Shown here in pieces: positions 11,485-61,529 of a DNA stretch of 64,000 bases; position 1 is the first letter of the stretch; each line of letters starts with the position of its first letter. A model generated the notes under the pieces. It was not told the DNA's origin, searched no databases, and saw only the letters and a program-made list of their open reading frames with translations. The stretch is from a virus. Lineage: Duplodnaviria; Caudoviricetes. The DNA lies in IMG/VR virus record IMGVR_UViG_3300037424_001651, positions 1-64,000 of that record; one strand, 5' to 3'. The translations under genes were made by a program, and so were the position numbers.

Positions 11485-11521
11485 CCTCCCGTCTCAAGCA
11501 GACAGCTAGCGGAGGGACACC

Positions 11522-16500: not shown

Positions 16501-16509
16501 GGTAATGCC

Positions 16510-36488: not shown

Positions 36489-36856
36489 AGGTACACGTGA
36501 AGTGGCAGTTCGAGTGTGCGGCAAAGTTACCTGTTGATCCTGTGGGTCGCGGCCACAAGCAGGAAATCGAGTTGGCGGTTGTGCGCGGTCAAGATCCAAG
36601 GCTGGATGAAGTTGTGCAGCGTGGTCTGGGTAGGCGTGGGAAGCAGTGCTTGGCGCTGAACATGGCAGATGCTGTTTTTGGTAGGGGTCACCATGAGATT
36701 GTGTGCGGCTATTGCGGGGTGCCAGCTTTTCGCTTGTGGGTGTTTCCCTCGTCGCAAGCAGGTACATACACGGTTTTGTATCGGCAAGTCGAGAAGAGTT
36801 CTGACGTTGGCGTTGTAACTGTGGAGGTGGTAGATGCCGAGCCGGACGAAGACTGA
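36485..36856 (+). CDS. hypothetical protein
   Basis: GTGA overlap. Confidence 0.45.
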   Translation: MKVHVKWQFECAAKLPVDPVGRGHKQEIELAVVRGQDPRLDEVVQRGLGRRGKQCLALNMADAVFGRGHHEIVCGYCGVPAFRLWVFPSSQAGTYTVLYRQVEKSSDVGVVTVEVVDAEPDED

Positions 36857-42587: not shown

Positions 42588-42806
42588 TTACTTGTGGCGG
42601 TAGGTGATGAACCCGCGACTCGGGTCGTACGGTGAAACCGCAACCGTCACATGATCCCCGAGCACGACGCGGATCTTGTAGCGCCGCATGCGGCCTGCTA
42701 GACGGGCTTTCACTTCCAACCCTTCACCGGTTGTGACCACGAAGTTGCCTTGAGCATTGACCGTTGTGATTCGCCCTTCCATATCGATGAGGTCAGCGCG
42801 GCTCAT
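42588..42806 (-). CDS. infA: translation initiation factor IF-1
   Basis: EG.I......F.V......A.LAGRMR...IRV..GD.V.V..SPYD..RG.ITYR. Confidence 0.95.
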   Translation of the reverse strand: MSRADLIDMEGRITTVNAQGNFVVTTGEGLEVKARLAGRMRRYKIRVVLGDHVTVAVSPYDPSRGFITYRHK

Positions 42807-42807
42807 G

Positions 42808-46169: not shown

Positions 46170-47216
46170 ATGTACGAGCTTGCATGCCCTAGCTGTATGA
46201 TGTTTGGCGATTTGGGCGGAGGCGAGATCATGACGAAGACGCTCGTCCTTCGCGAGCTTCAAGTTGGCCTCGCTGATTGGGGTTTGGCTGATACTGGTAG
46301 TCCAGGTGTGTGGAGCGCTAAACTTGGTAGCGCACTCAAGAGCTATCAACAAGAACGGAAGTATCCGTATCTTACCACCAAGCCGGAATACTGGACGATC
46401 TATGACATTGTCGAGCCGCGTATTGGTGAGCCGACGTTCGACATTTGGTCCCGGATCTATCAGGAAGCGACAGGCAAGACACCGAATGCCGGTGTTTGGC
46501 AGGTTCAATTCGCGCTGCGCCAGTTGAAATTCAATCCTGGTCCTGTGGATGGCTTGTCAGGAACCCAGACGACGAACGCGATCAAGTTATGGCAGAAGAT
46601 GCACGCTTTCCCGCAAACCGGTGTGCTCTTACCGACGCAAGTATCTGTGTTGGGGGCCGAGGTCGCAGAGGAGAAGTTGCTTGGTACGCTGCTGGTCACA
46701 GCCGAAATCCCGTCTGATACCTTGATCGAGACGATTGATCCGGCTGTCTCGTTCGAGGATCCGCCTGAAGTTGTAGAAGCGATTATCGAAGCGCAGGCGG
46801 CGGGTGTTCCGATCACTGTGCGCGAAGATCGTGCAGTAACAGAACCAAAAGTTGTGGTTGAGCGTGAGCCGACTACGCAAAAGATCATTTCTGTGACGAA
46901 GCTCATTCCAGCTACACCTCCCAAGCCGGTGAATCCGTGGGTGTGGGTAGGCGTCAGCGCGGCTAGTGTTGTTGCTGTGGGTGGGATCATTGCATTGGTT
47001 GTGCGGGCTGTTGGAGCTTCGGCCGCAACCGCTGCGGTTGCGGGGCTGGGGGCGTACGAAGAAGACCCCCGTGACGCACATCTACGTCGGGTCGGGCGCA
47101 TGATGCGCGTAAAGGTTCGGCAACGTTCTGAACCGATGCTGTCCAAACGCGAGAAGCGCCAGCGTAAAGGTGGTCGAAAAGGCCGTCATGCGCAAGCATG
47201 GCGTGAGGAGCAGTAA
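46170..47216 (+). CDS. peptidoglycan-binding-domain protein with C-terminal TM
   Basis: VWQVQFAL..L.F.PGPVDG..G.QT..AIK.WQ PG_binding_1 pattern. Confidence 0.75.
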   Translation: MYELACPSCMMFGDLGGGEIMTKTLVLRELQVGLADWGLADTGSPGVWSAKLGSALKSYQQERKYPYLTTKPEYWTIYDIVEPRIGEPTFDIWSRIYQEATGKTPNAGVWQVQFALRQLKFNPGPVDGLSGTQTTNAIKLWQKMHAFPQTGVLLPTQVSVLGAEVAEEKLLGTLLVTAEIPSDTLIETIDPAVSFEDPPEVVEAIIEAQAAGVPITVREDRAVTEPKVVVEREPTTQKIISVTKLIPATPPKPVNPWVWVGVSAASVVAVGGIIALVVRAVGASAATAAVAGLGAYEEDPRDAHLRRVGRMMRVKVRQRSEPMLSKREKRQRKGGRKGRHAQAWREEQ

Positions 47217-47217
47217 G

Positions 47218-47454
47218 ATGCGCGGCAAATATAGAGCCATGGGTGTTGTAACGCCTGAGTGGGATAATCGCATGCTCAAGCGCCTAACTAATGCGATCAC
47301 GGAGACAGTCGCGGCCATGCAGGGCTTTCAGAAGCGAGCCATGCGTTCGTCTGTGTACGATGCGGAATATTTCGAGGCCGCTGAAAGCCTTCTTGATTTG
47401 CGGATGGTGCCAAGATGCTTGCAACGGCCGTCGAGGACAACGCAGAGGCTCTGA
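47218..47454 (+). CDS. hypothetical protein
   Basis: ATG after upstream TAA. Confidence 0.4.
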   Translation: MRGKYRAMGVVTPEWDNRMLKRLTNAITETVAAMQGFQKRAMRSSVYDAEYFEAAESLLDLRMVPRCLQRPSRTTQRL

Positions 47455-47471
47455 AGGCAGGGTAAGGACAA
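47455..47471 (-). repeat. dispersed intergenic motif, copy 6
   Basis: Reverse complement TTGTCCTTACCCTGCCT. Confidence 0.7.
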
Positions 47472-47508
47472 GAACTCAATGTGCAGGCAACAATAAGGAG
47501 GAATAGCA

Positions 47509-48285
47509 ATGTACAACGTGAACTTCTCAAATAGTCTTGGCGCAGTGGAGCCACTCGAACAAGGGCTGTGGGATAGCGTTCCTGGCGACGTTTATCAAGA
47601 CGGCAAGTTTATCGCCGAGACAAGCGACGAGAACTTCGAGTACATCGAGAAGATGTCTCCGCCCTTGAGCAAGGAAGCTGCCGAGGCCATGGTTGCGGAG
47701 CTGACGGCCACCTTGAATGCGCGTCGCGCGGGGCTGGCGGCGCGTGGCATCGACGTGACTGAGGCGAATGTGACGTACGCTTGTGACGATGCGGTGTGCG
47801 GCGTCAAGTGGTCGTACGTGGCCCCGGTTCGTGAGTGGATGGGTCGTCAGCAATTCACCACGCAAAGCGAGGCTGAAGCATATCTGAATACGACGCTTCA
47901 GATGCTGCAAGCCAATGGCTGGGAAGTCCTGAACTCGCGCGTGACCGATCTCGATACTCCCGGGTACTGGTGCGTCGTGCACACTGTGGACATGACGCCG
48001 CTCTACCTTCAGATGGCAGAGCCAGGCGAGGGTGAAACGCTTGCTCCGCCGATCATTACAGACCTGCCCGAGACAATCGTGATCCCAGCCGCTACGATGA
48101 GCCGTGGCAAGAAGATCGGCTTGGGCCTCGGTATCGCCGGTGCTGTGTTGCTTCTGGGTGGCATTGTGACGGCGGTTGTGGTGAAGAAGCGCAACGACGC
48201 TGACGACGCGCCGGTGCATGGCTACGGTCGATACGGGCGTGCGTCTATGCACGGCCACTACAGCAAGCCTCGCAGCCGTTACTAG
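47509..48285 (+). CDS. protein with C-terminal TM anchor
   Basis: SD AAGGAGG; GLGLGIAGAVLLLGGIVTAVVV. Confidence 0.7.
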   Translation: MYNVNFSNSLGAVEPLEQGLWDSVPGDVYQDGKFIAETSDENFEYIEKMSPPLSKEAAEAMVAELTATLNARRAGLAARGIDVTEANVTYACDDAVCGVKWSYVAPVREWMGRQQFTTQSEAEAYLNTTLQMLQANGWEVLNSRVTDLDTPGYWCVVHTVDMTPLYLQMAEPGEGETLAPPIITDLPETIVIPAATMSRGKKIGLGLGIAGAVLLLGGIVTAVVVKKRNDADDAPVHGYGRYGRASMHGHYSKPRSRY

Positions 48286-48304
48286 GCGCGAAGGAGATTT
48301 ACGG

Positions 48305-48577
48305 ATGAACCCACTGGTAATCGTGTTCCGGCTCGTGACGGGACTCACAGAACTTATCGTGCACGAACTCAGGGCGAATCAGGAAGAGGCTGCGGCAGCC
48401 AACGTCGAAGTTGCCATGGGCTTCGGCCTCAAGGTCTTCGAGCGCCTCACCAATGGTGAGCCGCTTGATGAGCTGCTGAACAAGCGCGCCCGGGATCTCA
48501 TGACCGAGGAGGACGAGTCCGAGGTCGCGGCCGACGAGGCTGTGAAACGCGCCAAGAACATGTTCGGGAGGAAGTAG
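48305..48577 (+). CDS. hypothetical protein
   Basis: SD AAGGAG. Confidence 0.65.
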   Translation: MNPLVIVFRLVTGLTELIVHELRANQEEAAAANVEVAMGFGLKVFERLTNGEPLDELLNKRARDLMTEEDESEVAADEAVKRAKNMFGRK

Positions 48578-48805
48578 ATGGCTAGCGTCAAAAAGATCCG
48601 TCAAGTTGCGGAAGCGTGGACACGTTACGAAGACTACCTTGCGCAGTTTATGGGTTGGTATGCGCTGGACCTGCTCGATGACGCCGAGCGTGATGGCCTG
48701 TCAGAGCGAGAAACAGCAGCCATCATTCGACAGATGCTGGAGGAATACATTCCATCAACCGTTGACGACGCTTCAAGCGAGTTCTGGCGACAAGCAGGGC
48801 TGTAG
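48578..48805 (+). CDS. acidic hypothetical protein
   Basis: TAG-ATG junction. Confidence 0.6.
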   Translation: MASVKKIRQVAEAWTRYEDYLAQFMGWYALDLLDDAERDGLSERETAAIIRQMLEEYIPSTVDDASSEFWRQAGL

Positions 48806-49078
48806 ATGACTGAGGAAGGCAAGACGCTTGGCATCGCGTTCGGGAGCATCGCGGTTTCCATTGCGCTTGTCGCGTTGGTCGTTGGTGCGCTGCACAAACC
48901 GTCGGGAGGGAATGGTGCTATGGGCGGGGCTGGGACGAAGCTGATCAATAGAGCACGAATGCTTCTCGCGTATATGTCGCCGCAGGACGCGGTACGTGAG
49001 CTTGTGTCGACCGGTGTCGACAAGACAGATGCGTATTTCGCAGTTAAGGCAGCAGGCGTTCTGCTTGAGGAGAAGTAG
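48806..49078 (+). CDS. N-terminal TM protein
   Basis: TM then GAMGGAG. Confidence 0.6.
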   Translation: MTEEGKTLGIAFGSIAVSIALVALVVGALHKPSGGNGAMGGAGTKLINRARMLLAYMSPQDAVRELVSTGVDKTDAYFAVKAAGVLLEEK

Positions 49079-49366
49079 ATGGCACGTAAGAAGACGCACA
49101 AGGACGTCGAGTTCGCCGTGGAGTTCGCAGGTCCGCGCGGCGGACAGGAAAAGATGCACCGCTCTTTCGAGGAAGCGGCTGGTACGGCGATTGCCATGGC
49201 AGCTTCGACCGGACAAGAAGTGTACCTCGACGTCTTGATCTACAGCAAGGCAGGTGCTCGTTGGTGGGGCGGCGATACTGCGGTGGAAATGTACGAAGAG
49301 GATCCCGAGGCGTCGATTTCGCAGCGCGTCATCGTGCGCGCTGAGGACGAAGGCCGCATCGCATAG
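49079..49366 (+). CDS. hypothetical protein
   Basis: SD GAGGAG. Confidence 0.65.
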   Translation: MARKKTHKDVEFAVEFAGPRGGQEKMHRSFEEAAGTAIAMAASTGQEVYLDVLIYSKAGARWWGGDTAVEMYEEDPEASISQRVIVRAEDEGRIA

Positions 49367-49375
49367 GGGGGTGTC

Positions 49376-49756
49376 GTGAGCTTCGGACGTAAATGGAAGA
49401 ACTGGGGCGGTTCCAGTGAGACTAAGCCGCGTGGGATGGGCGGCTTCGCCGACATTGGCAGCCGCATCGTGAGCGCAGGCAAGCTCTCCAAGGCACTCAA
49501 GGACGCGGGCCTCTGGCCGCGGACCTTCACAGCGAACGACCTCAAGAAGGGTACCCCTGCCGCAAAGGACGTAGGCCACGAGATCTTCGGTAGTAGGGCG
49601 ATGATCTTCATCCATGCACAAGACATGGAGCATCGTCAGGCTATCGAGCGGTTCCTTCGCCGGGAAGACTACAAGTACAACCGGCGTTACTGGCCCGGCG
49701 CACCGGTCGTTGAGGCGCAGGTGTCGTATTTCAAGGGATGGCACTGGGACGAGTAG
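49376..49756 (+). CDS. leader-tagged hypothetical protein
   Basis: Starts MSFGRKWKNWGG. Confidence 0.7.
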   Translation: MSFGRKWKNWGGSSETKPRGMGGFADIGSRIVSAGKLSKALKDAGLWPRTFTANDLKKGTPAAKDVGHEIFGSRAMIFIHAQDMEHRQAIERFLRREDYKYNRRYWPGAPVVEAQVSYFKGWHWDE

Positions 49757-49767
49757 GAGACAATCTG

Positions 49768-50235
49768 ATGTTCAACCTCACCAAAGCAGACAAGACGGTC
49801 ATCGCCGCTTTCCTCGACCAGCGCCCGGCCTCGTCGAAGAAGCTCATAACGGACGGACAACGTCTTGATGGGCTGTGGATGGGCGGCATGGGAATCGCCG
49901 AGTGGCGTGGTCGCCGAATCCTGTTCACGGATCTGGGAAGCAAGGCGGCGCAGATTGTGCAGCACGCAATCGAGAAGAAGGCTCCGCGCAACTGGCTCGG
50001 CGGCTTTGGGCAGGCGCGCGGGCCGGAGTTGGACCCAGAGCAGGAGCAGATGCTCCACGAGATCGTCCTCATGGCGCGCAACGACGGTCGCTACTATCCC
50101 AACCAGCCTGCGATCTCTGTCGAGCAGGCTATAAAGGAATATATCAAGATCAAAACTGGGGGGCTGCGTGAGGATGCGCAGATCATCCGCCGTGCTGCCG
50201 TACGCGAAGTGCAGCACGTATGGAGGCAGCGATGA
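49768..50235 (+). CDS. two-domain hypothetical protein (LGGFG linker)
   Basis: SD AGGAG. Confidence 0.7.
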   Translation: MFNLTKADKTVIAAFLDQRPASSKKLITDGQRLDGLWMGGMGIAEWRGRRILFTDLGSKAAQIVQHAIEKKAPRNWLGGFGQARGPELDPEQEQMLHEIVLMARNDGRYYPNQPAISVEQAIKEYIKIKTGGLREDAQIIRRAAVREVQHVWRQR

Positions 50236-51017
50236 AACGACGTAGTTATGGCAGCAGCGCTGCCGATCTCGAACTAGCACACGAGGCAGTGAAGAAGGCG
50301 CGCAACTTTGTGTGGGAAGGCCCGAGCGACGAGTCGGACCCGGACAAGTGGGCCTTCACAGTCTCGCGGCATCGCGATTCGGGCCTGCTCGACGAGTCCA
50401 ACTTCGCGACGATCAGTAAGGACATGGAAGCGCGCTTCCCCGATGACGTCGAGGTGGTGCATTCCAGCCACTGGGCTGTGGGCTGGATCGACGAGCTTGC
50501 CGTGCGCGTCTTCGACGAGCAGGGCGGCATCACCGACGCTTTCCATGCCATTGTGGACTGGAAAGACAAGCTCGAAGACTATCCTATCGCCGACGAGGAC
50601 GATTACAGCGAACGCGAACAGAATGCGCTCATCGAACATATCGCTTCACAGATCATGTTTTCAGGTTTTACCGTGGATGATCCCGAAGATTGGGCGTATC
50701 GCGTGGCGCAGTGGTTGTCAGAGAACGGCTACGACAACGAGCTTGAGAACATCGATGATCGCGGCGCATACCCAAGCGAGGAAGCCGTTCAGGAAGCACT
50801 GCGTGTGCTTACACAAGCGGTTGGGGCGCTGGGTGAGATGGTAATGTCTGAAACCGCGGACGATGGACTTCGATACTGGTCGGTATATGCCCAAAGGTGG
50901 GTTGAGGTATCACCGGGTGGTTGGATACCTGTTGAGGAGTTGGCAGCGATGTCACCGGCCGACCGGGCACAAGCTATCGATTGGATAGAAAGGACCAGAC
51001 AATGGCAAAAAAGATGA
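50232..51017 (+). CDS. acidic phage protein (HW..GW / YP..DE motifs) plus short C-terminal domain
   Basis: RDS.LL.ESNF...HWAVGWI...LEDYPIADEDDYSERE. Confidence 0.7.
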   Translation: MKRRSYGSSAADLELAHEAVKKARNFVWEGPSDESDPDKWAFTVSRHRDSGLLDESNFATISKDMEARFPDDVEVVHSSHWAVGWIDELAVRVFDEQGGITDAFHAIVDWKDKLEDYPIADEDDYSEREQNALIEHIASQIMFSGFTVDDPEDWAYRVAQWLSENGYDNELENIDDRGAYPSEEAVQEALRVLTQAVGALGEMVMSETADDGLRYWSVYAQRWVEVSPGGWIPVEELAAMSPADRAQAIDWIERTRQWQKR

Positions 51018-51343
51018 TCATCAGGGCGCGGAGCTTCGAGAAGTGGATGCAGGCGAACTTCACGCGGGGCGAGCTTCAGGATCTCGCGCGCTACGGCGCG
51101 AACACAGGCTGGCAGGGCTTGACCTATTACAACGACACGGTCGCGCTCTACGACAAGTTCAACGTTGAGATCTGGACCGCGCTCTACGAAGATGCCGAAT
51201 CCTTCGGCGCGAAGAACGCCATCGCATTCATCGCTGACTTTGGTGGTGCAGACAGCGTCTCCGACGACGACACGTTCAAAAACCTGCTCGTATGGTACAT
51301 GGCCGAGCGCACAGCACACGAACTGCTTGGAGATGATTACTAA
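51002..51343 (+). CDS. conserved acidic phage protein
   Basis: G..G..GL.YYNDT..LYD....EI...N.LVW...E. Confidence 0.7.
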   Translation: MAKKMIIRARSFEKWMQANFTRGELQDLARYGANTGWQGLTYYNDTVALYDKFNVEIWTALYEDAESFGAKNAIAFIADFGGADSVSDDDTFKNLLVWYMAERTAHELLGDDY

Positions 51344-52107
51344 TGGGTTTCTTCTCGTGGGACTGCAACGTCTGCGGCCATCCGATGCTTTCACCGGATG
51401 CGACGAACCGGACCAACCGGTGGATGGCGGACGTCGTAGTCATCGAGCCGAACGGTTCCATCTTGATGGGTGAATACGACGGCTACGGCCGCGTGAACGA
51501 CCGCGACGTCGATGGGGAACCCTGCTGTTACCACCACGCTTGCTGGGAAGTTGCAGGCAAGCCCACGAAGTACATCCCAAGTGAGTCCGCGCACGATCAG
51601 GGGTGGTTCTTCGACGACCCCAAGCACGACATGCCCGATCCCCGCAAGTCCCGCGGCATGCGCGGCTTCGGGGCCGTGGCACGAAAGATCAAGAAGCAGC
51701 TTCCTGATGAGGCCGAGTTCTACGCATACCTCTACAAGAAGAATAAGGGCATCTTCTATCGCGGGGAAGGTGCGGATGGTCATGGTGTTGGGATGGGTGC
51801 GCTGGGTGCAGGCTTGTACGTGACGTGGGAAAAGGCCATGGCGAAGGCTTTCGCTGACCGGCAGAATAGTCACGTGTTCAAGTACAAGCTCAAGCCCGGC
51901 TTGAAACTGCTCGACGCGCAGAGTCGTACGATGGCATGGCTCAAAGCGGAAATGGGTTTCCATCCGTGGGAGTACAGCGACGACCCCATGTACGCTTTGA
52001 TGCTCACAGACAAGGTCCGCAGTTTGGGCTACGACGGCGTGATCAGCGACAAGTTGGCAGATGGGCTTGTGATCTTCAACGCGAAAAACGCAAAGAAGGT
52101 GAAGTGA
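51343..52107 (+). CDS. Cys/His domain fused via MRGFG to an ADP-ribosyltransferase-like (ART-PolyVal-like) domain
   Basis: FYRG...LG.GLYVT...A..FA...YDGVI...LVIF. Confidence 0.6.
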   Translation: MGFFSWDCNVCGHPMLSPDATNRTNRWMADVVVIEPNGSILMGEYDGYGRVNDRDVDGEPCCYHHACWEVAGKPTKYIPSESAHDQGWFFDDPKHDMPDPRKSRGMRGFGAVARKIKKQLPDEAEFYAYLYKKNKGIFYRGEGADGHGVGMGALGAGLYVTWEKAMAKAFADRQNSHVFKYKLKPGLKLLDAQSRTMAWLKAEMGFHPWEYSDDPMYALMLTDKVRSLGYDGVISDKLADGLVIFNAKNAKKVK

Positions 52108-52970
52108 TGGGCTTCGGACGCAAATGGAAGAACTGGGGCGACGCGGCTTCCGACAGGCGCGCGGAAGTCGGACGCATCATCTTCGAGCAGTTCGGCGGCA
52201 GGCAGGCCATGGCCATGATCGGCGGTCAAGCCACGTTGCTGAACTTGCCGCACTACGGCGAAGGCGGCCTCGGCATCAAATGGCCGAACAAGCAGCGCTC
52301 CAAGGGAAACTACGTCGAGATCCTCTTGAGGCCCGACGATACGTACGACATGACCTTCTACAACCTGACGATCCGGGCCAAGAAGCCGGTCAAGAAGTTC
52401 GAGGGTGTGTACGCGGAAGACCTTCGACGGCTGTTCGAGGATCAGACGGGTTGGTACCTGTCGCTGGGTGGTGCAGGATTCGGTGCGCACAAGAAGAAGG
52501 GTGAGGCTAAAGCCCCCACGATATACCTGACCAAGAGCGGCTCGCACTGGCAAGTCATCGCGCACGGGCAGGCTATAGCCCAACACCGCAGTGAAGAGCA
52601 AGCGGCGCGTGCCTACTTGTGGTACGGCGGCGTCCCGCTTGAGCCTTGGGTCTACTTGGGTGGCATCACAGGGGAAGATCGTTTCATCCGCCGCTCTGAA
52701 CTCTACGCAGCAGGACTCCAAGGCTTGGGAGCACTTGCTCTAGGTCCGCATCTGACCGAGGCGCAGATTGCAGCAGTGCGAGAAGAAGTCATACGCGAAG
52801 GTGTGCCTGTGCGTTTCCTTCACGACGGACAGAACTTGAACATCGTGACTGGGGAGTTGCTCCCGCGTGGCACTAACGTCCTGCACCAAATGGTGTACTG
52901 GGGCTTCCCGCGGTCGACCTCGAAGAAGATCGCCAAGTGGCTCGGTGTCAAGGCCGTGTTCTCGGAGTGA
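52107..52970 (+). CDS. leader-tagged three-domain polyprotein
   Basis: MGFGRKWKNWG; I.EQFGG...M.G...DDTY.M.F...GVYAEDL...FE.QTG.YLSL; linkers GAGFG and LQGLG. Confidence 0.72.
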   Translation: MGFGRKWKNWGDAASDRRAEVGRIIFEQFGGRQAMAMIGGQATLLNLPHYGEGGLGIKWPNKQRSKGNYVEILLRPDDTYDMTFYNLTIRAKKPVKKFEGVYAEDLRRLFEDQTGWYLSLGGAGFGAHKKKGEAKAPTIYLTKSGSHWQVIAHGQAIAQHRSEEQAARAYLWYGGVPLEPWVYLGGITGEDRFIRRSELYAAGLQGLGALALGPHLTEAQIAAVREEVIREGVPVRFLHDGQNLNIVTGELLPRGTNVLHQMVYWGFPRSTSKKIAKWLGVKAVFSE

Positions 52971-52975
52971 AGCAC

Positions 52976-53365
52976 ATGAGCTTTGGACGCAAATGGAAGA
53001 ACTGGGGCGGCCTGCGTGGGACGTCATGTAGCGAAGCGGATGGGTGGCTCCCCGAAGCAGAGTGTAGGAAGTACCACCCCAAGTATTTCCGCTTCGAGTG
53101 GAACGCGGATCACACGTACTGTCGCCCGCACAGAGGCGATGCGTGGTGGGACGATGCCTCCTACATCGCGCATCAAACAGGTGTAGATGCGATGGCGATG
53201 GAGGATTGGTGGTTCCGCGAGGAGGCACGCCAGCACGAAGCCGCGCGACAAGAACAGCGCGAGACGCGTGAGGCGGGCTGGCGGCGTAGAGGCAGTGCGC
53301 TGCCGGGGCGCAAGCCACAAAAGTATCGCCGCAGGCGGATCGATGTGGATGACATCCCCTTTTAA
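52976..53365 (+). CDS. leader-tagged hypothetical protein
   Basis: Starts MSFGRKWKNWGG. Confidence 0.65.
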   Translation: MSFGRKWKNWGGLRGTSCSEADGWLPEAECRKYHPKYFRFEWNADHTYCRPHRGDAWWDDASYIAHQTGVDAMAMEDWWFREEARQHEAARQEQRETREAGWRRRGSALPGRKPQKYRRRRIDVDDIPF

Positions 53366-53374
53366 GGCGCGAAG

Positions 53375-53662
53375 ATGAGCTTTGGGCACAAATGGAAGAA
53401 CTGGGGCCACCTGCCCGAGAAAAAGATCCTTTGGGAGGAAGCTGCCTTCCGCATCACAACGGACGGTTCGGGTGCCTACAACATGGAGAAACTACGCGGC
53501 CGCCCCACTGACAATCTTCCTGTAGGGAGCATCGAGTATTTTCCTCCTGAGACGCCATTGGAAGTTGTCATCAAGGAAGCGCGGTTGCTTTGCCAAGCCC
53601 AGATTCAACGGCAACGATTGACACGCGTCTATCGCCGTGGTGGACGCGGACGCGGAAGGTGA
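53375..53662 (+). CDS. leader-tagged hypothetical protein
   Basis: Starts MSFGHKWKNWG. Confidence 0.65.
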   Translation: MSFGHKWKNWGHLPEKKILWEEAAFRITTDGSGAYNMEKLRGRPTDNLPVGSIEYFPPETPLEVVIKEARLLCQAQIQRQRLTRVYRRGGRGRGR

Positions 53663-53665
53663 ATC

Positions 53666-54547
53666 ATGAAATTTGGACGTAAGTGGGCGAACTGGGGCGG
53701 CTTTGGGGCGACGCCAACTGCACGCGAGCTGGAAGTGCTCAAGGCTATCATCCACAGCGCGTATCACGACGGCGCGGATCCGGTGGACAACCCGGTCTGG
53801 TCGTGGTCAGCCCTGAAGAGCCGCAGTGACAACGCCGTCTTCGGTTCCTTGGTGAAGAAGGGCTGGGCTGGTTCTTCGTACTATGAGGAGAACGAGACAA
53901 TCGTCTGGATTACGCAGGAAGGCATGAACGTGCTACGCGCCGCAGGCGGGATGGCCGGTTTCGGTGGTCATGGCGCAGACATCATCGTGGTGGACCGCGC
54001 CGGGAATGTGCTGGAGACAGCGAAGGAAGGGATCCCGCGAGCTGCCATCGCCCAAGGCCGCTTTGACTCGCGGCGCTTCATCGAGGCGAACCTGCCGTGG
54101 TCGAGCGTCGCACGGATGTCTGACACGGAAGTCCTCGGCGTGGACGTCAGCTTCACAGAGCGGGATAGGCACGTCATCCGGGTCGTCGTGGCAACGCCGG
54201 AGCAGCGCGGCCACTGGAAAGAAGGCAGCGCGGACGATTGGGAATTGTACAGCAAGCCCGGTAGGAATGCTGCTGCCAAGGGCCTGAATGCAGCGCTGAA
54301 GAAAGCTATGAAGATGATCGACACCACACTGGTGATCGGGGACCTGGACTTGCAGCCAGAGGACATCGCAAAGATCGCGAAGGTGATCTCCAACGCGTAC
54401 GCGAAGTACATGGCTCCGGCGCTGATCAAGTATCGAGCGCTGGGTGCCGGAGATAGCGAGGGCTACTACCACGCGAATCAAGCGCTGATCGACCACGTGA
54501 AGCGCGCAAACGGCTGGTGGGACATCGACTTCAGAGACTACCTGTGA
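53666..54547 (+). CDS. leader-tagged multi-domain protein
   Basis: MKFGRKWANWGGFG; internal MAGFG. Confidence 0.7.
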   Translation: MKFGRKWANWGGFGATPTARELEVLKAIIHSAYHDGADPVDNPVWSWSALKSRSDNAVFGSLVKKGWAGSSYYEENETIVWITQEGMNVLRAAGGMAGFGGHGADIIVVDRAGNVLETAKEGIPRAAIAQGRFDSRRFIEANLPWSSVARMSDTEVLGVDVSFTERDRHVIRVVVATPEQRGHWKEGSADDWELYSKPGRNAAAKGLNAALKKAMKMIDTTLVIGDLDLQPEDIAKIAKVISNAYAKYMAPALIKYRALGAGDSEGYYHANQALIDHVKRANGWWDIDFRDYL

Positions 54548-54565
54548 TGCACGCGCCGCTCACAG

Positions 54566-54582
54566 TTGTCCCGACCCTGCCT
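54566..54582 (+). repeat. dispersed intergenic motif, copy 7
   Basis: TTGTCCC-GACCCTGCCT. Confidence 0.75.
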
Positions 54583-54596
54583 CAAGGAGTAGTACG

Positions 54597-55079
54597 ATGA
54601 CGACACGTTGCACAGTTGAGATCTGGGCTGCTGATATGCGCGTACCAACGGTGAGTCTATATCATCACACCGATGGTGATCCAGGCTTCATGGGTCCGAA
54701 GCTCGAAAGGTTCATGAAGTACATCATGAAAGTGTTACCATACCGACACGACGAAGCGGCGACAGTTGCAGCGATGCTCGTGAAGCTCTCGTCCGATAAT
54801 TATGATGGGCCGGTTGAACCGAATACTGGACCTGTCGAAACCTGGATTCCGAAAAATAGCGAGGTGATGGGGGCACGGGCGCTGATTCCGTTCTTCCATC
54901 CGACGTGTGTGGTGCACTGGGACATCGCTTACTTGTGGCGTGTCAAACTCGGGAAGGTATACGCAAAGAATAGGGGCTACAAGATCGAGTGTTATGTACC
55001 CAGCTTTGATTATGAAACAGGTGAGGTTCTCGATCTGAGGAAGGTCAACTGGAAGGCTGAGGCAAAGAAGAGGCGTTGA
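54597..55079 (+). CDS. conserved phage protein
   Basis: MTTR.....LY.H.DG.P..MG..L pattern; SD AAGGAG. Confidence 0.7.
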   Translation: MTTRCTVEIWAADMRVPTVSLYHHTDGDPGFMGPKLERFMKYIMKVLPYRHDEAATVAAMLVKLSSDNYDGPVEPNTGPVETWIPKNSEVMGARALIPFFHPTCVVHWDIAYLWRVKLGKVYAKNRGYKIECYVPSFDYETGEVLDLRKVNWKAEAKKRR

Positions 55080-55678
55080 TGTACGCTGTTGGGCACATGG
55101 CTGGATTTGGTGCGACCGCTGAGAAGCGGCGTGTGGACGTCGTCGGTCTATACCCCGAGGAGAATAAGTACCTCGGGACGGTGTGGAAGGTGTTCTACAC
55201 GGGTGCAGTGTCTACTATGTACCCGAGCGAACGTACATTGCGGTTCGTGAACGAATACTTCGCGACGAAGTATCCACATGTTCCAGCGACGGCTGAAGCA
55301 CATTTCAAGCTTGATGGGACGATGGACTACATGGAGGTCTTCGCACCGTTCGCGGTTGGGCCTCGTCCGGCTCCGGTTTCGTTGCCTTATACAACGGTAT
55401 CGATCCCAGTTGAGATTCGTTATGGGAGCTATCTCATTCGTACAACTGGTTTTCGTACGAGCTATTTGTCGGAGCGTAGTATTGCGTTCCTTAACGCATG
55501 GGTTACTTCGCAACAGCATTGGTCGGAGAAGTACAAGTATGAATTCTGGAAGCCGAAGGATGTGGTAGTGCGGTTGGATGCTGTGACTGGACGTCCTGAC
55601 AAGATAACCGTAAACGTTGGCCTTGGATCACTCGCGGACGCGAGCAAGGCGAAGGAAACCTACCTCGCAATGTTGTGA
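55076..55678 (+). CDS. hypothetical protein with MAGFG leader and internal duplication
   Basis: Two similar halves (YPSERTLRFVN / YLSERSIAFLN). Confidence 0.6.
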   Translation: MMYAVGHMAGFGATAEKRRVDVVGLYPEENKYLGTVWKVFYTGAVSTMYPSERTLRFVNEYFATKYPHVPATAEAHFKLDGTMDYMEVFAPFAVGPRPAPVSLPYTTVSIPVEIRYGSYLIRTTGFRTSYLSERSIAFLNAWVTSQQHWSEKYKYEFWKPKDVVVRLDAVTGRPDKITVNVGLGSLADASKAKETYLAML

Positions 55679-55704
55679 GGAACCAGAAAGAAGAGGAAGC
55701 TAAA

Positions 55705-56106
55705 ATGGCCCAAAAAACAAGTAGCAAGAAGCGGACGAGTAGCAAGAAGCGGACGAAGTCTGGCGACAAGTGCAAAGGCAAGATCTACTGGAACGCGGTC
55801 GCAATGGCGCAAGGGACCAAGCATAAGACGGCTGCAAGTACGCAGGTCGATCATTGTGTCCGTACTTGTCGTGTCGGGCGCGATGTTTGCGAAAGCACTG
55901 TGAAGTCCGGCCTGAAGGGGCGCAGGAAGGCTCGCAAGAGCGGTGTGCCTTATGGACGCAAGCTGTCGCAGACCAAGGCCGCGAAGGCGGCTCGTACAGG
56001 CTTCAAGACGGCTTCCAAGTCGTGCAAGCGCGCGAGCAAGAGCCGAGTGGGCTTCCTGTCCTGCATGAAGAAGACGGCCCCGAGGGAGATCGCGAAGAAG
56101 ATGTAA
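55705..56106 (+). CDS. very basic Lys/Arg-rich, Cys-containing protein (candidate DNA-condensing core protein)
   Basis: SSKKRT x2, high K/R content. Confidence 0.55.
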   Translation: MAQKTSSKKRTSSKKRTKSGDKCKGKIYWNAVAMAQGTKHKTAASTQVDHCVRTCRVGRDVCESTVKSGLKGRRKARKSGVPYGRKLSQTKAAKAARTGFKTASKSCKRASKSRVGFLSCMKKTAPREIAKKM

Positions 56107-56122
56107 GCAGGGTCAGGAACAA
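56107..56122 (-). repeat. dispersed intergenic motif, copy 8
   Basis: Reverse complement TTGTTCCTGACCCTGC. Confidence 0.75.
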
Positions 56123-56141
56123 TTTGAGGAGGAGGGTCACC

Positions 56142-56687
56142 ATGGCCGAGAAGTGGCGACGTTTTACTGCGTCCGATAATCCGTGGTCCCACGAGCCAGC
56201 AGAAGGTTGGCGGTCCAAGAACTGGGAGATTATCTTCCGGCCGAACTTCCATATCGTGTCCGGCTTGGTCCGGGCACGGTATGTGCGGCCCGACGGGTAT
56301 TTGCCGTGGGCTTACTTCCTTGTTTACAGCAGCGGCAAGCTTGGGTGGGACTGGCCGGAGCGCGTGCCGAAGTATGTTGAGGACAAGGTCAACGCCTTGA
56401 CGCGCGCGCAAGCTGGATCGTTTGGGGACGGCGCGCCGAAACGTCAGGGATATCGAGTTTTATACGCTCCGTTGGGTTCTTCCCGAAAGGTAGAGTGGAG
56501 CACACACGCAAACGCGCGTGAGGCAGTGAAGGAAGCACGTCGGTTGGTCCGGCATCGCGGTGTTTCAGGGGCACACGCTCGGTATGCACCGTGGATCAGC
56601 GTCATCGTTTTGGGGCCGCGCGGTAAGCTTTACTACGAGGGTTGGAACGAATTATTCGGCCCATCTGAGAGTTGGCGGGACGTTTAG
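56142..56687 (+). CDS. two-domain hypothetical protein (AGSFG linker)
   Basis: SD GAGGAGG + ATG. Confidence 0.65.
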   Translation: MAEKWRRFTASDNPWSHEPAEGWRSKNWEIIFRPNFHIVSGLVRARYVRPDGYLPWAYFLVYSSGKLGWDWPERVPKYVEDKVNALTRAQAGSFGDGAPKRQGYRVLYAPLGSSRKVEWSTHANAREAVKEARRLVRHRGVSGAHARYAPWISVIVLGPRGKLYYEGWNELFGPSESWRDV

Positions 56688-56702
56688 GAACAGGAGGATG
56701 CG

Positions 56703-57092
56703 ATGAGAAGACGAACTTTTGGTTTGGCAGCATGGCCTGAGTTGCAGCGGATCGGTGGCGTTGATGATCTCGTGCTCAGCGACGATGACATCATCAAACT
56801 GAGTCGCCACGTGACGGATCGACCCGGTGGTGGCGACAGCCCACTTGCGTCCTTGCTGGGTGCGTGCCTTGTCTGGCGACGCGGCACGAATGCAGTTGGG
56901 AAGGTCATAGGCGGCGCGACCGCGAACTTCGTGGCTTACCACCTCAGCAAGGGAAAGTCCGAGTCTTGGATCGTCAAGAGTTACCGTGCACATGTTGGCC
57001 GGGTTCTTCGCGCCGAGTTGAATAAGCAGCAAGCGGAGTTCGACTCCTACTTCGAGGAGTTGTGGGAGTTGCGGCAGCATCGCCGCCGCTAA
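56703..57092 (+). CDS. hypothetical protein
   Basis: SD AGGAGG. Confidence 0.6.
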   Translation: MRRRTFGLAAWPELQRIGGVDDLVLSDDDIIKLSRHVTDRPGGGDSPLASLLGACLVWRRGTNAVGKVIGGATANFVAYHLSKGKSESWIVKSYRAHVGRVLRAELNKQQAEFDSYFEELWELRQHRRR

Positions 57093-57118
57093 AGGAGTAG
57101 ACGTGATGACTCTGTTAC

Positions 57119-58300
57119 CTAAAGGAGACAGCTTCTAGGAACATGCAGACCAACGTCCACATTACGTCCCTCCGGCTCCATCCAAGCCGGGAGTGCGCGC
57201 GCGAGGATATTTCTCGCCGCGTTCTCGTCTCTGTGCAGGACCAGCCCGCAATGCGGACACGAGTGTTTCCGCTCGCGCAGCGTCTTGGGCACCTTCTGGC
57301 CGCAGCCGCTGCAATCTTGGCTTGTTCCTGCGGGATTCACAGCCACAACCTGCGTACCGGCGCTCTCAGCCTTGTACTTCAAGATGTTCAAGAACTGGCC
57401 CCAGCCAGCGTCTCGAATCGCCCGGTTCAACCAGCGGGGACCGCCCATCGTGGTAATGGTCAAATCCTCCACGGCGATGAAGCCGTAGCGACGGATCAAT
57501 TCCAGAGCTTCTTTGTGATGAAAGTCGCGCCGCTTGTTCGCGACGTGCGCATGCAGCGCCTGCACGCGTCCCTTCGTCTTCGCCCGGCGTTTGCTTCCGG
57601 GTTTGGCCCGGGCGAGCGCTTTTTGCTTGCGGCGCAGCGTAGGCAAGGTGTCTTTGAGAAAGCGCGGGTTCGGGATCTTCGCGCCATCAGGATGCGTGGC
57701 GAAACGCTCCAGCCCCAGATCGATCCCGGTCTTCGGCTCGTGAGCGCGCTCTTCAGGCAAGATTTTCGGCGCGCCGACGTCACAGGAAAAGACGGCGTAC
57801 CACTTGCCTGCTTCGCGCTTGATACAGACGGTTTTGATCTCGCCTTGCAACGGCCGGTGCAACTTGATACGCACCTTACCGACGTACTGGACGCGCAGCC
57901 TCGGGTGTGCCGGGTCGAGCAGCACAATTCCATCCCCATAACTCGGAAGCGTGAACGAGTCGAAGCGATCTCGGGGCTTGAAGCGTGGGTAGCCCGGCTT
58001 CTCGCCCGGTTTGGCCTTTTTGACGCGCCGGAAGAACGCCTCGAAGGACTTGTTGAGCTGACGCAAGGTAGCTTGCGCGCTGGAGAAGTTGAGCCGGGCG
58101 AAGTAAGCGTTCGAGCCGCGTTCGGCTTTGTACCACGCAGATTGTTCAGGGTAATTGACGCTACGTCCTTCGGCTTCCCAGCCTGCTTTGCGCTTAGCGA
58201 GGGCGACGTTGTAGAGGCGGCGGTGGGTTTCGAGCATGCTCGAAAGCTCCCCGATCTGTACCTTGTTGGGGTACAGACGGTACTTGAAGCTACGCCTCAT
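57119..58300 (-). CDS. tnpB: TnpB RNA-guided nuclease
   Basis: YRLYPN HTH, GIDLGL, AVEDL, CxxC...CxxC, RDENAA; RuvC D-E-D intact. Confidence 0.96.
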   Translation of the reverse strand: MRRSFKYRLYPNKVQIGELSSMLETHRRLYNVALAKRKAGWEAEGRSVNYPEQSAWYKAERGSNAYFARLNFSSAQATLRQLNKSFEAFFRRVKKAKPGEKPGYPRFKPRDRFDSFTLPSYGDGIVLLDPAHPRLRVQYVGKVRIKLHRPLQGEIKTVCIKREAGKWYAVFSCDVGAPKILPEERAHEPKTGIDLGLERFATHPDGAKIPNPRFLKDTLPTLRRKQKALARAKPGSKRRAKTKGRVQALHAHVANKRRDFHHKEALELIRRYGFIAVEDLTITTMGGPRWLNRAIRDAGWGQFLNILKYKAESAGTQVVAVNPAGTSQDCSGCGQKVPKTLRERKHSCPHCGLVLHRDENAARNILARALPAWMEPEGRNVDVGLHVPRSCLL

Positions 58301-58303
58301 ACC

Positions 58304-58702
58304 TTATTTACCCTTCTGGGCCTCGATATATTCACGAACTGTCTTCTCGTTGACGTGTCCGACGGTCCCGGCGTAGTAGCTTCGACTCCAGAGGGTCGGC
58401 AAGCGCGAGCGCAACGCCGGGAATTTTTGACGCAAGATGCGCGAGGTCGATCCTTTGAGGCGGTTGATGATCTCGGCCACGCACCAGCGAGGATCGGCTT
58501 CGACAAAGAGATGTACATGATCGGGCATGATCTCCAGCGTGTGTACAGTCATGTCCAGCGTATCCGCCTTTTCACGCAGCAAGACTTCGAGTCGCGCAGC
58601 CACATCGTCGTCGAGGACGGGCCGACGATACTTGGGGCACCACACGATGTGATACTTCAAGTTGAAGACGGCTCCGGCGTTTTTGCTGCAGCGAGCTTCC
58701 AT
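58304..58702 (-). CDS. tnpA: Y1 HUH transposase
   Basis: YHIVWCPKYRR, DHVH, WSRSYY, YIEAQ. Confidence 0.96.
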   Translation of the reverse strand: MEARCSKNAGAVFNLKYHIVWCPKYRRPVLDDDVAARLEVLLREKADTLDMTVHTLEIMPDHVHLFVEADPRWCVAEIINRLKGSTSRILRQKFPALRSRLPTLWSRSYYAGTVGHVNEKTVREYIEAQKGK

Positions 58703-58709
58703 GCCGCAC

Positions 58710-58737
58710 AGTATACACAAGACAAATACTTAATCAA
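58710..58737 (-). promoter_or_regulatory. tnpA promoter
   Basis: TTGATT-16 nt-TATACT with upstream TG. Confidence 0.5.
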
Positions 58738-58797
58738 GAAAGCAGGGACTGCATTCCTCCGCCACCTGAAGGAGGCGGTCCCCTGCGGGAGAAGATT

Positions 58798-59235
58798 ATG
58801 GCTGGACCGAAGAAGACCGAGAAACGCGACCCGGGCGATCCGCTTGAGGTTGTCATACAGCCGATGCTGGAAGTGCCGAACCGAACCATCTTCTATGTGC
58901 GCAAGGTCAAGATCTACAAGCTTGGTCTGGTAGCATACGAACGCATGGCGAAACAAGGCATCCAGCCTAAATTAGCTTCGCAGGCGTTCATGGGCACGCC
59001 GCGCTATTGGCAGCTTCGCCGCCGGATCCGGCAAGAGGCTGGCTACCGCGATGATGGGTCGGGCAAGTTCATTTACCTGCCTGACGGTTACCGTGAGCGT
59101 GTGCAGGCCAACGAGAACGAACTGCTCGACGCTTTCTGGTCGGGTTGGTACGGCTGGGGAATGCTCGACCGTGGCGGGAGCATCGAGAACGCGAAGTACG
59201 ACGGCCGCTGGCGCATGACCGTAGGAGATTTCTGA
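58798..59235 (+). CDS. hypothetical protein whose ATG is the IS target site
   Basis: ATGG = reverse complement of CCAT. Confidence 0.7.
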   Translation: MAGPKKTEKRDPGDPLEVVIQPMLEVPNRTIFYVRKVKIYKLGLVAYERMAKQGIQPKLASQAFMGTPRYWQLRRRIRQEAGYRDDGSGKFIYLPDGYRERVQANENELLDAFWSGWYGWGMLDRGGSIENAKYDGRWRMTVGDF

Positions 59236-59237
59236 TA

Positions 59238-59534
59238 GTGCCGAAGATCTATGGAAAGCTGGCGGGTGTTTTACAGGCGCGTGATGCGGCGGGCAAGTTG
59301 ATCAAGCCCGTGCGGCGCATCGGTATGACGAGTATCGAGTCAACCCTCATGACGCACTATGGTGGTTTGACGTTGACGTTGGACGCGCGCGGCTACTTCT
59401 GTTTGGTAGCGCAATCGCGCAGCGGAGAAACGCTAGCTGTGCAGGAAGGTAATGTACACGCGTTGCTCGACGCCGCTGGATTGTTGGAACCAGAAGTATT
59501 GGAAGCGCTCTTGAGCGAGGAAGAGCTGCACTGA
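59238..59534 (+). CDS. hypothetical protein
   Basis: SD AGGAG + GTG. Confidence 0.5.
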   Translation: MPKIYGKLAGVLQARDAAGKLIKPVRRIGMTSIESTLMTHYGGLTLTLDARGYFCLVAQSRSGETLAVQEGNVHALLDAAGLLEPEVLEALLSEEELH

Positions 59535-60181
59535 TGAGTTGGGGCCGCTGGAAAGCGTGGGGTAGCTTGGGCGAACGCAGGTTCGATTCGCGCCAAGCGG
59601 CGCGGAAACCGGTACGCCCATTGCGTGTTCCAAAACCATACGAATTGCCTTCCTTCGTACCGCCTGTCCGTCCTGGTGCTGGGCGGCATGAGCATTGGAC
59701 TGAAAAGCAGGTTTACCCGGATTTGCTGCGGTTTGCCGCCGAGGTGCTGAAGTTTCGCGATCCGCGACTCAAGAGCCACTTTGCGGATACAGGTAATGTC
59801 GACGCTATCGTGTACGACGCTGGGCGGCGTAGCAAGCCCTGTGCACGGTTCGAGGTCAAGAGCGCGCAGCCTTACGTCAAGGATGTACACGCACGTACAG
59901 GACGTCGTGTGGGCCGTTATCAAGTCAGCCCGCGTCAGCATGCGCTACACAAGACAGGTGTTTGCGATTTGTTCTACGTGCTTGTGCCAGTTCGGGACGA
60001 GAAGATCGAGCATGTGGGCATTTGTAATGTACCGATGATCGAGAAGGTGTTGGAGAAACCGCTTACCACGGCTATCGGTATCCATCGTATTGGTGGGTTC
60101 GAGTGCCCTGGCGTGGATGACTGGGTCAAGGCCCAGCGGGCACAAAAACGGCGTAGAATAAGTGATACGCGTGAATTTTGA
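59534..60181 (+). CDS. putative PD-(D/E)XK endonuclease with degenerate leader (MSWGRWKAWGSLG)
   Basis: E...VDAI...FEVKS. Confidence 0.6.
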   Translation: MSWGRWKAWGSLGERRFDSRQAARKPVRPLRVPKPYELPSFVPPVRPGAGRHEHWTEKQVYPDLLRFAAEVLKFRDPRLKSHFADTGNVDAIVYDAGRRSKPCARFEVKSAQPYVKDVHARTGRRVGRYQVSPRQHALHKTGVCDLFYVLVPVRDEKIEHVGICNVPMIEKVLEKPLTTAIGIHRIGGFECPGVDDWVKAQRAQKRRRISDTREF

Positions 60182-60205
60182 GAAAACGAGGCGGTAGGGT
60201 ATAGT
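60178..60205 (+). promoter_or_regulatory. sigma70-like promoter
   Basis: TTGAGA-16 nt-TATAGT. Confidence 0.45.
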
Positions 60206-60458
60206 GCTAAAAGGTAGGAGACAGGGTCATGCGCCGACGTTGCTGTTGCGGTTGGTCGATGACGACACGGAGGATGTGATTCTCGACACGCAGCTACATG
60301 TGGATGCGCTGACCCCTTCCTTCATTGAAGAGGGCCTGTTGGCTTATTTCCACGGCCACACGGGCTGGAACTTGCAAGCTGTGCAAGATTGGGAAATGGA
60401 ACTCGATAGCTTACCGCCACGCCTGATCGTTTTCGTTCAGGCTGTACGGGGAGGTTGA
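60204..60458 (+). CDS. hypothetical protein (start uncertain)
   Basis: ORF track. Confidence 0.45.
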   Translation: MLKGRRQGHAPTLLLRLVDDDTEDVILDTQLHVDALTPSFIEEGLLAYFHGHTGWNLQAVQDWEMELDSLPPRLIVFVQAVRGG

Positions 60459-60459
60459 T

Positions 60460-60681
60460 ATGTATCAAATCGGCTTCGGAGAACCACCACGCTGGGGTCG
60501 GATGGCGGGCGGCGGTCTGGGGCCGCGAGCACAGGCTGGGACGTGCCTTTACGTCGGCGAGTTTGCTGGGGGTCTTGGGCCACTGCCTGCACGCGTTCGG
60601 CCGTGGGTGCTTAGCACCTCGCGGCGGGTCCGGCTGTTCCGGCGCATGTACGGTCCCGGGTCGTTCTTGGGCGCGAGGTAG
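60460..60681 (+). CDS. small basic protein (IGFG leader)
   Basis: SD GGAGG. Confidence 0.5.
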   Translation: MYQIGFGEPPRWGRMAGGGLGPRAQAGTCLYVGEFAGGLGPLPARVRPWVLSTSRRVRLFRRMYGPGSFLGAR

Positions 60682-60683
60682 CT

Positions 60684-61529
60684 GTGGCCAAAGGACCATT
60701 CAATAAGATGTCTAACCGCGAGTTGAACCGGTGGATCGGGGAGTGGGAGGCGCAGGCCCCGGAGAACTTCTGGATGGACGGTCTCCACGCAGGAGGCTTT
60801 ATGCGTCGGCAGGCCGCCTACAAGATGTACCGTCGCGGCTGGCGGATGCGATCCCCGGCCGAGCAACAACGCATGTTGGACGACTTGGGGCGTAGCGCCT
60901 ACTACGGCTATGGTGGATACTACGGCTATGGTGGATACGGCCAGGAAATCTACCCGGAGCACACAGCCATTGGTCGGCGTGGGAAGCCGTCACGTCCGGC
61001 GCGCTATCTCGTCGAGAAGTGGCTGGAGGCGGGGCCATTCCGGTCAATTTCACCGCAGCGTCTCTCGATCCTTGACTATGGCTGTGGTCGCGGCACCGAC
61101 ACGCAGTGGTTCATGTCGCTGGGCTACAAGGCGCACGGCTACGATCCGGTGCCGTCCGCTGACGTGCCCTACTGTACCGGCAAGAAGCCACGCAAGAATT
61201 ACCACATCGTGTTCGTCAATTACGTCATCAACGTCGTTCCGACCTTGGAAGGACGGATGGGGTTGCTCAAGTCTGCGTGGGACTGTGTCCGGCGTGGCGG
61301 TTTGCTTTATGTGACCTCGCGTCCGGTCAAGGACGTCGAGTCTGGTGCAAAGAAGGGCAAGTGGAAGCGGCACGGGGACGGTTGGTACGTCCCGTCGACG
61401 CAGACCTTCCAGAAGGGCCACAGCAACGAGGAACTCATCGAGATGGCCTCGATGCTGCCCGGCGCTGCGTGGGTCCACAAGTTCGCAGCCAGTGGCTGGG
61501 CTGGCGTGATGGTCGCGAAGAAGAAGTAG
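60684..61529 (+). CDS. class I SAM-dependent methyltransferase with N-terminal extra domain and (YYGYGG)2 linker
   Basis: LDYGCGRG.D, YDP, NYVINVV, TFQKG. Confidence 0.85.
   Translation: MAKGPFNKMSNRELNRWIGEWEAQAPENFWMDGLHAGGFMRRQAAYKMYRRGWRMRSPAEQQRMLDDLGRSAYYGYGGYYGYGGYGQEIYPEHTAIGRRGKPSRPARYLVEKWLEAGPFRSISPQRLSILDYGCGRGTDTQWFMSLGYKAHGYDPVPSADVPYCTGKKPRKNYHIVFVNYVINVVPTLEGRMGLLKSAWDCVRRGGLLYVTSRPVKDVESGAKKGKWKRHGDGWYVPSTQTFQKGHSNEELIEMASMLPGAAWVHKFAASGWAGVMVAKKK

Follow-up and report, generated by a model that had tools for sequence, protein, structure and literature searches.

In this work, we focus on a gene block at about 46-61 kb of a 64,000-nucleotide stretch of viral DNA (Duplodnaviria; Caudoviricetes; positions 1 to 64,000 of IMG/VR record IMGVR_UViG_3300037424_001651), hereafter referred to as the window, and on the short peptide signature G-[FL]-G that recurs in its proteins. 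The virus is an uncultured phage from sediment, and this is a hypervariable accessory-gene block in which otherwise unrelated proteins share one two-part peptide grammar, made up of an N-terminal leader and a junction signature. Our preferred reading, to which we assign a probability of roughly 40%, is that the leader acts in targeting and the signature provides processing sites, in a manner resembling the capsid-targeting sequence (CTS) of phage T4 and with a motif similar to the adenovirus protease consensus. An earlier note on this DNA had described the region as encoding polyproteins, which is not borne out: it contains about 27 separate plus-strand open reading frames (ORFs, named here by their first position in the window) of 73-348 amino acids, with their own start codons and a purine-rich Shine-Dalgarno-like stretch upstream, and only some of these genes fuse modules, two or three each.

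The clearest feature of the block, missed by the earlier note, is the shared N-terminal leader. Five ORFs begin with the same 11-residue pattern, M-x-F-G-[RH]-K-W-[KA]-N-W-G (the type-1 leader; with [NS] at the ninth position in its general form), namely ORF 49376 (49376..49756, +; 126 amino acids), which has a GTG start and in which leader codons 1-11 are followed by the variant M-G-G-F-A, ORF 52107 (52107..52970, +; 287 amino acids), a three-module protein with the leader at residues 1-11 and its first module, of the phrog_9437 type, at about residues 19-121, ORF 52976 (52976..53365, +; 129 amino acids), ORF 53375 (53375..53662, +; 95 amino acids), and ORF 53666 (53666..54547, +; 293 amino acids), in which the leader runs into W-G-G-F-G (53693-53707), an inserted module, M-A-G-F-G (53951-53965), and a conserved domain designated Y. 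A looser, degenerate copy, M-S-W-G-R-W-K-A-W-G-S-L-G, opens ORF 59534 (59534..60181, +; 215 amino acids). In an all-against-all BLASTP comparison, similarity among the leader ORFs was limited to the first 11-17 residues, the rest of the proteins being unrelated. The leader genes 52976, 53375, and 53666 are consecutive and lie in one reading frame, separated by one stop codon each and by spacers of 9 and 3 nucleotides.

At the DNA level, the leader is conserved from the start codon onward for about 36 nucleotides, with no conservation upstream. Residues F3, G4, K6, W7, W10, and G11 are invariant in ten copies from two genomes, with different synonymous codons used at F3, G4, K6, and G11. Since synonymous variation occurs at invariant residues and nothing is conserved upstream, the constraint acts on the peptide. 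The same leader is found on different cargo in the metagenomic proteins P0002, P0004, P0007, P0008, P0009, and P0010, as well as in four genes of L027, a 33-kb syntenic contig that additionally carries one internal copy of the leader, in frame and with an ATG of its own. The flanks of the leader-gene slot are orthologous between the window and L027 (77% identity for the first module of ORF 51343 and 61% for ORF 55079), whereas the leader genes between them are not, and ORF 50220, leaderless in the window, has an L027 orthologue with a type-1 leader. Judged by these comparisons, the slot is cassette-like and hypervariable, with the tag as its sole constant. The leader DNA pattern had no match in IMG/VR; among JGI metagenome contigs it gave 24 matches, all out of context and none at an ORF start, and an exact scan of one genome each from 185,579 prokaryote species returned 4 out-of-context chance matches, none at a gene start.

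A second leader family (type 2) consists of M-Y-x-[VI], a few further residues, and G-[FL]-G, and is found on four ORFs of the window and their L027 orthologues. These are ORF 46170 (46170..47216, +; 348 amino acids), whose leader starts with M-Y and ends in F-G-D-L-G and which contains a peptidoglycan-binding domain (PG_binding_1) and a membrane helix near the C-terminus; ORF 47509 (47509..48285, +; 258 amino acids), with a leader running from M-Y-N-V to S-L-G and one membrane helix near the C-terminus; ORF 55079 (55079..55678, +; 199 amino acids), whose leader ends in M-A-G-F-G (55097-55111); and ORF 60460 (60460..60681, +; 73 amino acids), whose leader M-Y-Q-I-G-F-G is kept in L027 and in the more distant contig L026 (JGI contig Ga0118657_10003726). 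Most type-2 leaders occur on proteins in which a membrane helix lies near the C-terminus. Type-2-like starts recur in L026, which has recurring N-termini of its own, namely M-F-D-V-S-F-G and M-Y-N-I-G-G-N-G-L-G (e.g., 7347-8261, 16351-17091, and 11387-11668 of that contig), along with two paralogues that start N-N-F-[FW]-P-R-P-R-D, indicating that leader families differ between lineages.

The second part of the grammar is the junction signature. As far as comparison of related sequences can tell, G-[FL]-G, usually with a hydrophobic residue three places upstream, closes leaders and marks the points at which modules are inserted, swapped, or permuted. The earlier placement of the motif at the ends of short leaders and at inter-module junctions is borne out by relatives, which support about 10 of the 15 listed sites as one or the other. 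Three kinds of connection link domain Y of ORF 53666 to the leader, always at G-F-G: a direct one in P0002, and two via unrelated inserts in P0004 and in the window, each insert being bounded by G-F-G. Module 1 of ORF 52107, the only module to which PHROGs gave a name, corresponds to the whole of phrog_9437, a family of unknown function, and its homologues, more than 1200 in number, occur in proteins of 84-2427 amino acids. It is preceded by N-W-G, F-G-F-G, G-G-F-G, or G-A-L-G with the same sequence downstream, and G-F-G or G-L-G comes after it in the window, P0009, P0011, and P0014; ORF 52107 carries G-A-G-F-G (52470-52484) and, further on, L-Q-G-L-G (52716-52730). Module order is permuted, with one module standing after module 1 in P0009 and before it in P0014. 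Only 4 of the 104 homologues with a recognisable C-terminal end carry the signature after module 1, and all four are the closest relatives, so that the signature belongs to the virus lineage and not to the domain.

Other genes of the block behave similarly. ORF 51343 (51343..52107, +) joins a Zn-ribbon-like module to an ART-PolyVal-like module at M-R-G-F-G (51658-51672), the second module being related to stand-alone proteins that weakly match ART-PolyVal. It has the first module and M-R-G-F-G in common with P0161, after which the two diverge completely, and the downstream part of P0161 opens with an in-frame leader copy that has its own ATG. ORFs 49738, 50220, and 56142 follow the same module-edge pattern when compared with relatives. 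The two-module ORF 49738 (49738..50235, +) has an internal junction L-G-G-F-G (49996-50010), which reads V-R-G-L-G in its L027 orthologue; ORF 50220 (50220..51017, +) has V-G-A-L-G (50820-50834) before an extra C-terminal module absent from L027; and in ORF 56142 (56142..56687, +; 181 amino acids from the start conserved in the relative), A-G-S-F-G (56412-56426) closes a conserved module, with a different downstream sequence in L027. Two of the 15 listed sites are weak items: V-A-G-L-G (about 47037) directly follows a membrane helix, and Y-G-G-Y-G, in the gene at 60684, lies in a Tyr/Gly low-complexity stretch with no G-[FL]-G junction.

Leader ends and internal junctions carry the same G-[FL]-G signature. 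In a set of 33 such sites, 26 have a hydrophobic residue at P5, the position that matches P4 of the adenovirus protease adenain. G, R, or A occupies P4; Gly stands at P3 in 30 sites; P2 holds F in 22 and L in 10; and the P1′ residue is small or acidic. Among the 26 hydrophobic residues, 8 are M or L and the remainder W, V, or F. G-F-G is spelled by at least six codon combinations. An aromatic residue or Leu between glycines, a hydrophobic residue upstream, a position in a disordered linker, and a residue class that is kept as the residues themselves change together indicate that the signature behaves like a recognition motif and not like a passive linker.

All 15 peptides that the earlier note had listed are present where it had placed them, and the enrichment it had anticipated holds as well. 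The region has 11 matches to the note's pattern, [MLAW]-x-[GS]-[FL]-G, among 4808 residues (1.55 expected from shuffling), versus 2 among 16,388 residues elsewhere (Fisher test, 4e-6), a comparison that is partly circular because the pattern was drawn up from those same sites. As an independent measure, G-F-G occurs 9 times in the region versus 1.33 expected, and none of 1000 within-protein shuffles reached 9. The form hydrophobic-x-G-[FL]-G occurs 7 times versus 1.43 expected in the region (P about 0.001) and 5 times versus 3.23 outside it (P 0.22). The syntenic block of L027 replicates the excess, with 7 versus 0.97 for G-F-G and 9 versus 0.89 for the five-residue form. Outside the block, G-F-G is mildly over-represented (9 versus 3.2 expected), and small ORFs at 7042-7398 and 14063-14422 have basic N-terminal stretches ending in G-F-G (R-R-S-Q-R-G-F-G; G-G-G-F-G-G-S-F-G).

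The predicted structure of ORF 52107 agrees with a location of the motifs in disordered linkers, the point that the earlier note had suggested checking. In an AlphaFold2 model built on an alignment of 109 sequences, module 1 has a predicted local distance difference test score (pLDDT) near 90, and the leader and both junctions are of low confidence, with values below 50 at residues 1-6 and 8-11 (leader), 124-127 (G-F-G), and 203-214 (G-L-G and A-L-G), and also at residues 184-188, 246-256, and 282-287. A conserved G-L-G within the folded module 1 is buried in a strand, so that the signal must comprise more than the tripeptide. For ORF 53666, the model is based on 4 sequences and is too poor to rely on (pLDDT 54); both of its motif sites lie in predicted coil. 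A Foldseek search of the ORF 52107 model against the PDB gave no match at E ≤ 0.001.

Among known systems, the closest arrangement for a tag on a hypervariable set of proteins is the CTS of phage T4. This sequence is carried by the internal proteins IPI-III and Alt and is removed by the prohead protease gp21 at the site [LI]-x-E. The T4 internal proteins are described as diverse defence proteins that share only the CTS, which the head protease removes (PMC3012670). As in T4, a conserved N-terminal leader of about 10 residues is found on unrelated, fast-turning-over accessory proteins in a variable locus, and the motif at the end of the leader recurs at other sites. Unlike in T4, the leader sequence here is unrelated, the putative site is hydrophobic-x-G-[FL]-G and not [LI]-x-E, the motif also joins modules within multi-module proteins, and the contig has no gp21-like protease, scaffold, or capsid gene. 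In Staphylococcus phage 80alpha, capsid and scaffold proteins undergo Prp-dependent N-terminal processing that mimics ribosomal protein L27. That system resembles the present one in having a short N-terminal leader common to several phage proteins that could be removed by a protease encoded elsewhere, whereas the motif differs, and, as the scan of 185,579 species contained no leader-started gene, nothing suggests host-protein mimicry of this type.

The adenovirus protease, adenain, belongs to clan CE and cleaves at (M/I/L)-X-G-X↓G and (M/I/L)-X-G-G↓X (PMC3386624). The block shares with it a recurring pattern of hydrophobic residue, any residue, Gly, any residue, Gly in several proteins of one virus; it differs in that this is a bacterial virus, W, V, or F prevails at the hydrophobic position, the fourth position holds F or L only, and no clan-CE protease was detected. 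The fit to the adenovirus consensus claimed earlier is accordingly mixed: on paper the first (type-1) form is matched, but few of the hydrophobic residues are the required ones, as counted above. Polyvalent proteins of phages and conjugative elements are predicted by Iyer et al. 2017 to be delivered with the DNA and to be released proteolytically (PMC5512222). Like them, the block combines and reshuffles effector-type modules, module 1 is also found in other proteins as long as 2427 amino acids, and relatives of the second module of ORF 51343 weakly match ART-PolyVal; unlike them, it has two to three modules per protein and many single-module genes, and lacks a peptidase domain embedded in its proteins. 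In PMC5512222, a keyword search found neither a shared N-terminal leader nor a defined junction motif. As to the modular polyvalent-protein system raised by the earlier note, the block shows the multi-module, permuted architectures; no processing peptidase domain (e.g., MPTase) was matched in the region.

Under the preferred reading, the leader would dock each protein onto a single shared partner, the assembling virion being the most plausible one, in the manner of the T4 CTS; a protease, viral or host, would cut at or beside G-[FL]-G; and the cut would remove the leader and free the modules. The targeting and cleavage steps are inferred, as are the protease's identity and its location. More tentatively still, the two parts may form an undescribed code, in which an 11-residue Trp-rich leader and adenovirus-like hydrophobic-x-G-[FL]-G cut sites load, and separately release, hypervariable effector modules. 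If true, this code would point to a phage protease for maturation or processing whose specificity is unlike any known from bacterial viruses. Taken as a whole, the leader and junction code is, at the level of sequence, a variation on a known leader-and-cleavage theme, its mechanism being unproven.

Several results weigh against targeting and processing. A Pfam search of the approximately 104 ORFs of the contig, some of which were also compared with PHROGs, found no peptidase of any family, including clan CE, prohead, Peptidase_C5, C48, C57, and C63, and no capsid, scaffold, portal, terminase, or tail family, and the block comes after replication genes and not after structural genes. Because the contig is a fragment without structural genes, the missing peptidase is weak evidence. 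The buried G-L-G of module 1 counts on the same side, as do junctions that lack the signature in orthologues, namely after module 1 in P0010 and at 13706 in L027. Met is frequent at P5 of internal sites, which, together with the internal leader of P0161 and its own ATG, means that some junctions may be relics of fused genes or internal starts instead of cut sites.

The main alternative, which we hold tentatively, is that nothing is cut: the leader would bind a common partner, such as a membrane surface, a chaperone or adaptor, or a host hub protein, and the full-length proteins would work as beads on a string, with the hydrophobic residue and G-[FL]-G serving as the lineage's favoured inter-module hinge or as a second docking motif. 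This arrangement accounts for the shared leader and for the position of the signature in linkers as well as cleavage does, and the fact that no protease was found also speaks for it. The helical spacing of F3, W7, and W10 amid basic residues recalls membrane-binding amphipathic peptides, but the hydrophobic moment of the leader (0.49) does not rise above that of shuffled sequences, 10% of which reach it, making the amphipathic-helix test non-significant. Moreover, it is unusual for plain flexible linkers to preserve the spacing between an aromatic and a hydrophobic residue at junctions that are otherwise unrelated, and the free permutation and insertion of modules suggests that they act independently.

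The protease envisaged by the earlier note, a virus-encoded clan-CE (adenain-like) cysteine protease cutting hydrophobic-x-G-x↓G as in adenovirus maturation, appears improbable. The motif maps onto (M/I/L)-X-G-X↓G (PMC3386624), yet the contig search described above matched neither clan-CE nor prohead nor any other peptidase, residues at the hydrophobic position are for the most part W, V, or F and not M, I, or L, and the Atlas look-alikes of two contig genes come mainly from tailed phages. We also consider it unlikely that the pattern is a DNA-level signal for cassette exchange, in which the 36 nucleotides of leader DNA and the G-F-G codons would provide microhomology for recombination and the peptide would have no function. 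The hypervariable slot between conserved flanks, the direct G-F-G repeats that flank insertions, and the mutual resemblance of the leader DNA copies are all compatible with such a signal; against it stand the synonymous variation at invariant residues with nothing conserved upstream of the start codon, the six or more codon combinations for G-F-G, and the way in which orthologous junctions hold the motif class while residues change (L-G-G-F-G versus V-R-G-L-G). Chance or composition, that is, motifs picked after the fact from Gly-rich proteins, is contradicted and can be set aside: the region is indeed richer than the rest of the contig in Gly (9.0% versus 7.3%) and Trp (2.9% versus 2.0%), and the note's pattern was defined on the sites tested, but composition-keeping within-protein shuffles never reach the observed counts, L027 replicates the excess in a second genome, and identical 11-residue leaders on five unrelated ORFs are impossible by chance.

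If the leader and signature do form a loading-and-cutting signal, they would mark delivered or co-handled effectors among the orphan genes of this lineage from sequence alone, imply a new protease specificity for bacterial viruses, provide a transferable tag and a cleavable linker with which foreign proteins could be loaded, as is done with the T4 CTS, and supply the concrete junction motif that the polyvalent-protein concept has so far lacked. Even without cutting, one tag on many unrelated proteins points to a single partner that handles interchangeable phage proteins.

Within the block, the 129-amino-acid product of leader gene 52976 ends in D-V-D-D-I-P-F (53345-53362), whose D-D-I-P-F resembles the C-terminal tip of bacterial SSB, and its relative P0007 ends in D-D-M-P-F; on the basis of this likeness, the protein may compete for, or recruit, SSB-binding host proteins. 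The conserved neighbour ORF 54597 was considered as a protease candidate and set aside, its Atlas look-alikes being unnamed phage proteins. The block is interrupted by an IS200/IS605 insertion (57119..58720, -), with TnpB at 57119-58300 and the Y1 TnpA at 58304-58720, which stands outside the motif system and is missing from the same place in L027. The methyltransferase encoded at 60684..61529 (+) is extended at its N-terminus and includes a low-complexity linker of Tyr and Gly.

The window covers the first 64 kb of one contig of 75,547 bp, treated here as a virus record. No terminal repeat was found on this contig, which is thus best taken as a fragment of a larger genome. The full stretch occurs in one public run only, a sediment metagenome from which the record itself may derive, and no RNA dataset containing it is listed among public runs. 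Isolated phages include no close relative of the contig, a megablast search of the region against the phage record collection gave no match, and searches of IMG/VR with three proteins and one alignment found no relatives. The contig carries phage-type replication genes, including a UDG-PolA fusion, an SNF2 helicase, a split RecD2, a PD-(D/E)XK nuclease, and a primase; in the first of these, a UDG domain is fused to a family A DNA polymerase in a protein of 1093 amino acids (window 36834-40115). ORF 7743 (7743-9764; 673 amino acids, no Pfam match) was examined as a capsid candidate and rejected, since Atlas shows it to be GHKL ATPase-like (HATPase_c_3, Hsp90/MORC-like).

The contig also holds a set of RNA-related genes that is unusual for a phage, comprising an RRM-domain protein (window 1803-2123), an IF1/eIF-1A-like protein (42588-42830, -), and a Ro60-like protein with TROVE and vWA domains and a C-terminal HTH (G000 66492-68420; L025 2492-4420). 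A conserved protein of 364 amino acids (window 62148-63242), with a membrane helix near its C-terminus, has a domain of about 180 residues in common with a membrane protein of 548 amino acids (25911-27557); an E-S...G-L-W-S-L stretch recalls lytic transglycosylase motifs, but Pfam gave no match. Finally, in a batch Pfam scan, one of 42 ORFs weakly matched the Acb2/Tad1 hairpin domain (E 1.5e-4), which belongs to an anti-defence sponge family.

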